Below, piece after piece: positions 41,139 through 41,903 of a stretch of 60,912 nucleotides of DNA. Position 1 is the first letter of the stretch. Each line of letters starts with the position of its first letter. Where the stretch lies: the IMG/VR virus record IMGVR_UViG_3300003691_000005, positions 1 to 60,912 of that record, one strand, 5' to 3'. Position numbers and translations under genes: made by a program. This stretch comes from a virus (lineage: Duplodnaviria; Caudoviricetes). The notes beneath the pieces were generated by a model. It worked only from the letters and a program-made list of their open reading frames with translations. It made no database searches and was not told where the DNA came from.

Positions 41139-41333
41139 GGTAACTATTGGAGATAGAGAAATGAAATTAACACCGGAACAAATGTTTGCAGCTATAGAAA
41201 ATTATGCCGCGCAAGAATTAGGTATTGTAGGAACACCAACGATAAATATTATTGCCAACAATGATGTTGAAGCAGGGAGTATCATTGCAATTACTGATGT
41301 TTATGAGGTACGGGTTGAGCTCTAACCGCCTAA
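41063..41333 (-). mobile_element. Integron-type gene cassette 1
   Basis: Core sites GTTAGGCGGT (41132) and ACCGCCTAAC (41325) are perfectly complementary; contains one RBS-bearing ORF. Confidence 0.75.
41161..41325 (+). CDS. Cassette 1 ORF, 54-aa hypothetical protein (not in ORF track)
   Basis: RBS GGAG; MKLTPEQMFAAIENYAAQELGIVGTPTINIIANNDVEAGSIIAITDVYEVRVEL. Confidence 0.65.
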   Translation: MKLTPEQMFAAIENYAAQELGIVGTPTINIIANNDVEAGSIIAITDVYEVRVEL

Positions 41334-41363
41334 CACCCTAATTCAAGGGTAACTTTTAATAAA
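41331..41363 (-). repeat. 33-bp direct repeat copy 1 (attI-like landing site)
   Basis: TAACACCCTAATTCAAGGGTAACTTTTAATAAA; on the minus strand CTTGAAT-TAGGGT-G|TT. Confidence 0.75.
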
Positions 41364-41376
41364 AATAGGTGATCGA

Positions 41377-41601
41377 ATGAGTGAGTATTTAGAATGTATA
41401 GAAGTATCCAGCGTGATGCATTTTGTAGATAACTTTATCAAAGATAAAAAGTATGAAATTACAAATGTTTCTGGAATTAGCGTCATCACAGGCGAGAATG
41501 GCACTCAATACCCCGTGAACATTTCAAACGGGCTAGCCGAAATGGTGAGCGTCGATTTGTCATTTACATGGCAACCAAAGTTTAAATTGGGTTATGCCTG
41601 A
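41377..41601 (+). CDS. Hypothetical protein (74 aa)
   Basis: RBS AGGTG; the stop overlaps the attC2 TGATAAC. Confidence 0.6.
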   Translation: MSEYLECIEVSSVMHFVDNFIKDKKYEITNVSGISVITGENGTQYPVNISNGLAEMVSVDLSFTWQPKFKLGYA

Positions 41602-41658
41602 TAACCTTTACGATAAAAGGCGCAGCTTTACCGCGTCCTTTTGATTGCGTTGTTAACT
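41599..41658 (-). other. Integron attC site 2 (60 bp; plus strand is the bottom strand)
   Basis: TGATAAC-6nt-GAT AAAAGG CGC loop GCG [T] CCTTTT [G] ATT-5nt-GTTAACT. Confidence 0.8.
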
Positions 41659-41873
41659 GTTATTACGGAGTAAATAAAATAAAACATTTAGGATGCGAAT
41701 GTACCTACTGTCCCCTTGCATGCAATGGAACAGTAAACAGGCTGGAATTTGAGGCCGAGGAAGCAGAGGCCGCGCATCTTTGGCTAGACGATCAATGTGT
41801 ATCCCGAACTGACATTGCTACTGGCAACGAGCTATCGCTTGTGGGAAGAATTATGAGATACAAAGACAGTTAA
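41605..41873 (-). mobile_element. Integron-type gene cassette 2
   Basis: Core sites GTTAACTGT (41652) and ACAGTTAAC (41866) are perfectly complementary. Confidence 0.75.
41679..41873 (+). pseudogene. Cassette 2 ORF (64 codons) with ATA in place of a start codon
   Basis: GGAG-8nt-ATA, then IKHLGCECTYCPLAC...ELSLVGRIMRYKDS; the stop lies within the core site. Confidence 0.5.
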
Positions 41874-41903
41874 CACCCTAATTCAAGAGTAACTTTTAAT
41901 AAA
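41871..41903 (-). repeat. 33-bp direct repeat copy 2 (attI-like landing site)
   Basis: TAACACCCTAATTCAAGAGTAACTTTTAATAAA; one mismatch to copy 1. Confidence 0.75.

Follow-up and report, generated by a model that had tools for sequence, protein, structure and literature searches.

The complete genome of a virus of the Caudoviricetes (Duplodnaviria; IMG/VR record IMGVR_UViG_3300003691_000005), a stretch of 60,912 bp that was analysed over its entire length and is referred to below as the window, carries a 33-bp repeat, here named R, that we lean towards regarding as the phage-side flank of two integron-type cassette insertions. Each copy of R (R1 and R2) abuts a different small unit made of an attC-like hairpin (U1 or U2) and a short open reading frame (ORF A or ORF X), and the evidence comes from the geometry of these hairpins, from the complementarity between the two ends of each unit and from the position at which the units meet R. 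The coordinates of all features of the region are collected in Table 1.

The repeat and the two cassette-like units

R1 and R2 lie 540 bp apart and are identical at 32 of 33 bases, the sole difference (G/A) being at position 18, as stated in the initial annotation of this stretch. The 33-mer match was recovered in 0/100 dinucleotide shuffles, and a search of the window with sub-patterns allowing up to 3 mismatches detected no third copy. Both copies are intergenic, preceded by a stop codon and followed by the ribosome site that serves the next gene, and the ORFs flanking them are unrelated to each other. On the minus strand R reads GTTAC, CTTGAAT, 6 nt and G↓TT (the arrow marking the putative crossover), which is the layout that had been claimed; on the plus strand, both copies open with TAAC. 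The crossover was set between A and C of AAC, after the available text of PMC5027507. From AA↓C rightwards, 30 nt are identical in the two copies save position 18, while on the other side the sequence is entirely different, R1 being preceded by the cassette of ORF A and R2 by that of ORF X. The initial annotation had raised such an abrupt change on the AAC side and had held that the copies begin at the AAC core closing a cassette: AA↓C occurs at 41333/41334 and 41873/41874, where the attC-type cassettes end. Its proposal of two independent insertion points is supported by the occurrence of a different cassette at each copy.

With respect to the crossover, R1 and R2 begin at one and the same base. 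The left junctions of the units read ...TTATAA↓C and ...TGATAA↓C, and removal of the units leaves gene P joined to gene B through ...TTATAA↓CACCC... and gene B joined to gene C through ...TGATAA↓CACCC... The 7-mer found at R1, GCCTAAC (41328-41334), fits the RYYYAAC consensus. Genome-wide, the bare motifs occur at chance level, with 56 GTTRRRY observed versus 61 +/- 7 expected and 62 RYYYAAC versus 53 +/- 8; the motif alone therefore proves nothing and the weight rests on the structures adjoining R.

On alignment of the two 540-bp units, each small ORF proved to be preceded by a further conserved intergenic element, U. U1 and U2 form imperfect hairpins in DNA folds, and both display the same succession of TAAC, a 5-nt spacer, a 4-bp box, a bulged G, 6 bp, a bulged T, a stem-loop, a 4-nt spacer and GTTA. 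According to the available text of PMC5027507, the attC bottom strand measures 57-141 nt and has conserved AAC and GTT and an unpaired spacer of ca. 5 nt, with two extrahelical bases located on one arm and separated by 6 bp, the G being nearest to the L box and the T furthest from it. U1 (82 nt) and U2 (60 nt) are imperfect hairpins within this size range, both with AAC and GTT boxes, with G and T extrahelical bases 6 bp apart and with spacers of 5 and 4 nt for the ca. 5-6 nt of attC sites. The distance from the bulged G to GTT is 8 nt in both, as in three aadA-type attCs of a class 1 integron locus used as a control. In the circular form, the boxes of unit 1 (GCCTAAC/GTTAGGC) fit the RYYYAAC/GTTRRRY consensus.

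A template of this layout, run over the whole window on both strands, matched at two loci only, U1 and U2, both having the T and G bulges. In 200 shuffles the mean was 0.11 loci; at least two loci were obtained in 1/200, and at least two with T/G bulges in 0/200. Other loci, 121.9 kb in total, contained a single match. In the class 1 control locus (14.9 kb, from a phage P1 isolate), the template gave five matches at zero mismatch and a sixth with one, each of them immediately following a cassette gene, on the other strand. Weaker matches (12/13 pairs) occur in the window at 56384-56525 (+) and 60310-60462 (-), the second with T/G bulges and within coding sequence; both are probably due to chance. 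A full template match with T/C bulges was also noted at 3610-3702 (+) of a 4.1-kb contig (L008), chosen for its RecT relative, of a Lysobacterales metagenome-assembled genome (MAG), and it may correspond to a real attC near prophage-like genes. Finally, the end of gene B (41581-41597) reads TTTAAATTGGGTTATGC and resembles the 3' end of Vibrio-type attCs in locus L013 (CTTAATTGGGCGTTATGC), a likeness treated here as coincidence.

Self-comparison of the region uncovered a perfect inverted repeat linking the right edge of each U to the left edge of the R that comes after it. In other words, the 5' TTRRRY end of each cassette is complementary to the first box of its own attC, as expected of attC cassettes, over 11/11 and 10/10 bp. 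The end boxes have a constant part, TGTTA/TAACA, and a unit-specific part that covaries, four of the five aligned pairs differing between the units by compensatory changes. In a formal count, 37/38 cells of the end boxes were paired, with 4 compensatory pairs, versus 33-57% paired and 0-1 compensatory in slid controls. Since inverted 10-mer pairs are overall at chance (51 versus ca. 49 expected by our own estimate), the weight of the end boxes lies in their same position in both units together with their covariation, not in single 10-mers; by direct calculation, the chance complementarity of the unit-specific 6 and 5 bp is ca. 2e-7. Complementary cassette ends are a signature that is also present in a real integron array. 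In that of Vibrio phage Va_90-11-286_p16, 11 of 13 cassettes have a 5' GTT end that fits their own attC box at no fewer than 9 of 12 positions, versus only 5-9 of 12 positions for the attC of the abutting neighbour. By the same measure, the units of the window score 11/12 and 10/12.

The two-fold layout of the region, (U-A-R-B)(U-X-R-C) with a period of 520-540 bp, is also what would be expected of the neutral leftover of an old tandem duplication in which the likeness to attC arose by chance. This origin is highly improbable: no similarity exists between the coding parts, as against 97% identity in R, and both the rarity of two or more template matches in shuffles and the chance value calculated for the end boxes argue against it.

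The same complementary ends might instead act at the RNA level, as a 10-11-bp long-range stem formed around each small ORF and controlling processing, stability or translation of the mRNA with no site-specific recombination involved, R being conserved as a leader or operator of genes B and C. The count of paired cells and the compensatory pairs also fit this explanation; in both units the minimum-energy fold and the centroid fold contain the stem, pairing is slightly better for the + strand than for the - strand, and in a 1-kb fold 10/11 pairs of the unit 1 stem have probabilities of 0.9-1.0. The stem of unit 2, however, reaches only ca. 0.28 and the outer U:R pairing ca. 0, the flank-to-flank duplex energies are ordinary for this genome, being equalled by 799 and 620 of 4041 windows, and the chance-level number of inverted 10-mer pairs tells against the stems as well. 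Rfam scans returned 0 families in the window, and the attC geometry of U1 and U2 with their AAC and GTT boxes is left unexplained. A role as mRNA stems is thus quite unlikely. An extended U:R helix of ca. 20-22 bp proposed by RNAduplex was rejected, as its pair probabilities are ca. 0 in the 1-kb fold and 15-20% of genomic windows have equal energy.

Table 1. Location and composition of the repeat, the cassette-like units and the adjacent genes (window positions)
Feature	Coordinates	Strand	Description
R1, repeat copy 1	41331..41363	+	Putative crossover at A41333/C41334; followed by Shine-Dalgarno and gene B
R2, repeat copy 2	41871..41903	+	Putative crossover at A41873/C41874; followed by Shine-Dalgarno and gene C
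U1, attC-like hairpin, 82 nt	41057..41138	+	Geometry of attC bottom strand; TAAC 41060-63; spacer CTTTT; 4 bp AAAT/ATTT; bulged G41123; 6 bp AAGATG/CATTTT; bulged T41116; 8-bp stem; 21-nt loop; spacer TGTT; GTTAGGC 41132-38
U2, attC-like hairpin, 60 nt	41599..41658	+	U1-type geometry; TAAC 41602-05; spacer CTTTA; 4 bp CGAT/ATTG; bulged G41643; 6 bp AAAAGG/CCTTTT; bulged T41636; 3-bp stem; 9-nt loop; spacer CGTT; GTTAACT 41652-58
Putative cassette 1, 271 bp	41063..41333	-	U1 and ORF A; top strand by integron convention is the minus strand of the window; ends TGTTAGGCGGT (41131-41) and ACCGCCTAACA (41325-35), perfect 11-bp inverted repeat
Putative cassette 2, 269 bp	41605..41873	-	U2 and ORF X; ends TGTTAACTGT (41651-60) and ACAGTTAACA (41866-75), perfect 10-bp inverted repeat
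ORF A, 54 aa	41161..41325	+	No relative found
ORF X, 64 codons	41679..41873	+	CxCxxCxxxC motif; ATA start
Gene P	40703..41062	+	Phage backbone; stop TAA 41060-62 gives AA of the left junction of cassette 1
Gene B, 74 aa	41377..41601	+	Between R1 and U2; no relative in phage records
Gene C, 78 aa	41918..42154	+	Phage backbone; relatives in 50 phage records; overlaps next gene

R compared with known recombination sites and phage elements

In line with the initial annotation, which had described R as having no long partner arm, DNA folds around R1 and R2 are at shuffle level on either strand (z -0.67 to +0.48), as are five of six RNA folds, the exception being the + strand around R2 (z -2.18), whose fold is absent at R1. 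Within 150 nt, no inverted repeat involves R, and the attC template has no match there. In the interval formed by R1 and gene B (41334-41604, 271 bp), no box complementary to its own end was found. Since R has no hairpin partner and this interval no complementary box, R is not itself an attC, and nothing demonstrable marks it as the half-attC that the initial annotation offered as an alternative.

A related explanation is that the whole segment 41063-41917 was taken up in one step as a piece of a host integron array, that is a cluster of attC sites lacking an integrase (CALIN), R being the decayed 5' half of the attCs of two further "cassettes", R-B and R-C. It would account for the near equality of the three crossover-to-crossover intervals between 41063 and 41873 (271, 271 and 269 bp), the middle one of which, R1 and gene B, is not cassette-like, and for the start of R, where TAAC, a 5-nt spacer and AATT resemble the 5' arm of U1 and U2; in chromosomal arrays, moreover, attC ends are conserved between unrelated cassettes. 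Against it stand the missing 3' arm of R, with folds at shuffle level save the R2-specific one and no template match, and the R1-gene B interval, which unlike real cassettes has no GTT box complementary to its own end. In addition, gene C, which overlaps the phage gene after it, is widespread in phages, and the 15 nt of R past the AATTCAAG box are identical in both copies and extend into the ribosome site. Uptake in one step is therefore considered unlikely.

As a double-stranded site, R shares several properties with attI1 of class 1 integrons (locus L014; available text of PMC9892861). The crossover is at G↓TT, only one side is conserved while the other is replaced by each cassette, and a GTTAC box and a short imperfect palindrome (5+5 in R) are located upstream of the crossover. 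R differs from attI1 by the absence of an adjacent intI or Pc promoter and of recognisable direct repeats DR1/DR2, by the distance from the start of GTTAC to the crossover G, which is 19 nt in R and more than 30 in attI1, and by its occurrence in two copies versus one. No general consensus exists for attI. The attI-type site proposed by the initial annotation thus stands as far as a double-stranded, one-sided target is concerned, with cassettes on the non-conserved side; by the strict definition R is no attI, and the complete genome has no tyrosine or serine recombinase to go with it.

R also resembles attG sites as presented in the accessible part of bioRxiv 10.1101/2022.09.11.507474, in that these are double-stranded, have GWT at the crossover, lie outside the integron platform and receive cassettes that keep their attC; in both copies of R the corresponding motif is G↓TT on the minus strand. 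Whereas attG sites are short, with central cleavage and little sequence requirement, R spans at least 30 nt, and its use on two occasions at one and the same base suggests that recognition is more specific than for attG, or that selection is at work. Alternatively, R may be nothing more than a linker between genes, made of a stop codon, an A/U-rich leader and a Shine-Dalgarno sequence, that doubles as a good, attG-like off-target of the integron integrase IntI. R had at first been read as an ordinary common leader or recombination linker because of the lack of a tyrosine or serine recombinase, the lack of a local hairpin and the chance-level occurrence of GTTRRRY/RYYYAAC, a reading that was later revised.

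Repeated intergenic modules are otherwise known from T4-type phages, in which promoter/stem-loop cassettes (PeSLs) border ORFans within plastic regions and can yield small circles; as described in the available part of PMC2839356, they recombine by homology and contain sigma-70 promoters as well as local terminator hairpins. By analogy, R and U could be portable regulatory junctions through which homologous recombination driven by RecE/RecT shuffles small ORFs. The phage does encode RecE and RecT, the repeats occur strictly between genes, with unrelated ORFs on their flanks, in a nin-like accessory region with NinB and NinG, and PeSLs run from an upstream stop codon to the downstream start codon (same source). 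R, however, has no sigma-70-like promoter, R and U occur in 2 copies only versus the stable stem-loops present in tens of copies (ca. 50 per genome) for PeSLs, and the exact identity runs within R, 17 and 15 bp, are shorter than the minimal pairing segment of 23-27 bp given for Red-beta in the part of PMC3945230 consulted. Regulatory junctions would not predict the complementary ends of each unit, and unlike PeSLs the units carry attC geometry; this explanation is very unlikely.

Other functions considered for R were rejected. As a promoter, R has no sigma-70-like site, and the region contains 16 promoter-like sites versus 21.7 +/- 4.4 in shuffles; as a terminator, it would rely on a 5-bp hairpin and T-run at R1 that the G/A difference breaks in R2. 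A nut-like reading of R1, which does not extend to R2, was dropped.

The closest parallel is provided by phage CALINs and cassettes (Qi et al. 2023; PMC9892861, in the part available), which also combine attC-type hairpins, small cassettes and a phage devoid of intI, in a marine-type setting and with the cassettes in a mosaic accessory region. In the present genome, each cassette is instead single and located beside a copy of one conserved phage repeat, and the target site can therefore be reconstructed; the ORFs are, moreover, reversed relative to attC. In the portions of the literature on phage attC sites and cassettes that were accessible, no report was found of a repeated phage target used twice.

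Points against cassette insertion, and genomic context

Several observations weigh against the insertion of integron-type cassettes. A first group concerns orientation. The geometry of the attC bottom strand is found on the + strand, which is also that of ORFs A and X downstream of the hairpins; U1 and U2 do not lie downstream of a gene with their bottom strand antisense to it, and both ORFs point the opposite way from those of canonical cassettes. In the class 1 control, the bottom strand was opposite to the gene for 6/6 attCs, and 15/18 annotated genes of the Va_90-11-286_p16 array are on the top strand. Minus-strand frames within the two cassettes include no convincing ORF. The reversed ORFs could reflect the retention of only those cassettes that the phage operon can express.

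A second group concerns the hairpins and their detection. The boxes of unit 2, AGTTAAC/GTTAACT, depart from the RYYYAAC/GTTRRRY consensus at one position, as does the 7-mer AGTTAAC at R2. The 4-bp box and 3-bp stem of the template were fixed after U1 and U2 were known, so that it is no independent detector, and it was validated on a single locus; on Vibrio-type attCs it recovered 0/14 at zero mismatch and 1/14 with one. A covariance model built from 14 Vibrionales attCs, and thus lineage-specific, detected nothing at U or R, its best match in the window being located elsewhere with E = 4.4. Among 401 genomes sampled from the class of the Lysobacterales MAG, the 3' arm of U was matched in 196, with counts close to those of a reversed-pattern control, which is background level.

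The remaining points relate to R and to the source of the recombinase. R has no adjacent intI and promoter region, the genes that follow it encoding products of 74 and 78 aa. A 27-mer of its core is absent from viral contigs, and a 21-mer is absent from 185,579 species genomes and from metagenome contigs; these collections supplied neither a relative nor an empty site. Because nothing matches in these species genomes, R names no host, and the hope expressed by the initial annotation of a clue to the host from a search with the 33-mer came to nothing. The left 17-mer of R has one match (L012), judged to be due to chance; the contig is unrelated, carries a GDD polymerase-like ORF and lacks a partner arm. 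Finally, a six-frame search of the complete genome with PF00589 and PF00239 gave 0 matches at E <= 1, and Pfam and PHROG scans of the larger ORFs revealed no tyrosine or serine recombinase.

With these points taken into account, the core of the initial annotation holds, namely a repeat that begins where a cassette closes and two independent insertion points, and it now rests on evidence new to this analysis, the hairpins U1 and U2 that carry it having been absent from the earlier description. The labels "attI" and "maintained landing pad" are unproven for R.

Of the two small ORFs, ORF X has one relative, a 64-aa protein (P0003, encoded on a 1761-bp contig) with ca. 75% identity and a Met where the window has ATA, and it is a real gene family. 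GGAG occurs 8 nt upstream of this ATA (41679-41681), which is either a start-codon mutation or an unusual start. Metagenome contigs yielded no relative in alignment scans with ORF X; from viral contigs these scans returned 3 matches, all of them antisense and spurious.

The phage is of lambdoid type and marine type. Pfam and PHROG scans identified its large terminase subunit, portal protein, tail proteins and very large virion proteins, together with RecE and RecT on the minus strand, a single-stranded DNA-binding protein (SSB), an O-like replication protein, NinB and NinG. The repeat and the units are situated in a run of small plus-strand genes that extends from the replication gene to NinB and that is a lambdoid "nin-like" accessory region. 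Megablast of the window against phages found no relative and the sole blastn match was NinB, with 70% to Thalassomonas phage BA3; scans seeded by the NinB, gene C and RecT proteins retrieved distant loci only, all devoid of the repeat. No tRNA was detected in the window.

Many early genes have a common start context, GAGGTGAGTGATGAGT (40252-40707, 42418-42446, 44260-44290), with proteins beginning MS[EKD], and it is this common context that explains the weak similarity running on past R into genes B and C. A 29-nt repeat family (5 copies, GAGCTTGAGGCTGA core) codes for a coiled-coil motif common to several small neighbouring ORFs between 40276 and 42449, which look like paralogues. Elsewhere, ca. 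725 bp at 38705-39430, upstream of the O-like replication gene, contain several inverted repeats and no ORF of 40 aa or more and may represent an origin or control region, and two tandem copies of a 108-nt unit, 72% identical, occur at 13972-14190 within a tail-fibre-like gene.

Proposed route of insertion and its significance

If R is the phage-side flank of two cassette insertions, the ancestral order would have been gene P-R-gene B-R-gene C, with R as an intergenic junction present twice. The ancestral R, of ca. 34 nt (ATAA↓CACCC...AATAAA), would have provided the stop codon of the gene before it and, for the gene after it, an A/U-rich leader and a ribosome site. An integron integrase would then have recombined the folded attC of a circular cassette with R, the enzyme being necessarily that of the host since the phage has none. 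In either copy of R the joint would have fallen at the identical position, G↓TT of the minus strand (AA↓C as read on the plus strand), and two different cassettes would have entered, U1 with ORF A and U2 with ORF X. As it has no hairpin partner, R would have served as a double-stranded, one-sided target, acting like attI or a strong attG hotspot with its conserved sequence all on one side of the crossover. That IntI made the joints, that R was specifically recognised and that events took this order is what we infer from the junctions and the units.

Precedents exist for these steps. In the available part of PMC9892861, attC clusters devoid of integrase are reported from 17 phages of 10,705 screened, with 5/6 tested sites recombined by IntI1, and bioRxiv 10.1101/2022.09.11.507474, as far as it was accessible, describes the insertion of cassettes by IntI at non-att GWT sites. 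The occurrence of attC sites in phages has thus been reported already, the manner of their arrival being left open. In the genome described here, two insertions can be read at both of their junctions, one and the same 30-nt phage sequence served for both and the empty target can be reconstructed to the base. The cassettes also carry a signature within their own sequence, made of complementary ends and of the T-6 bp-G bulge geometry of the hairpin. With R as a defined receptor and U1 and U2 as defined donors, the question can be put to a direct bench test.

A more far-reaching proposal, which we hold only tentatively and think doubtful, is that the phage keeps two dedicated docking sites recognised by the integrase and uses the host IntI to gain cassettes from the chromosomal integron of its host. 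If true, R would represent an integron platform reduced to its attI and carried by a virus; phages would reach the cassette pool directly, and cassettes would gain a viral route between hosts.

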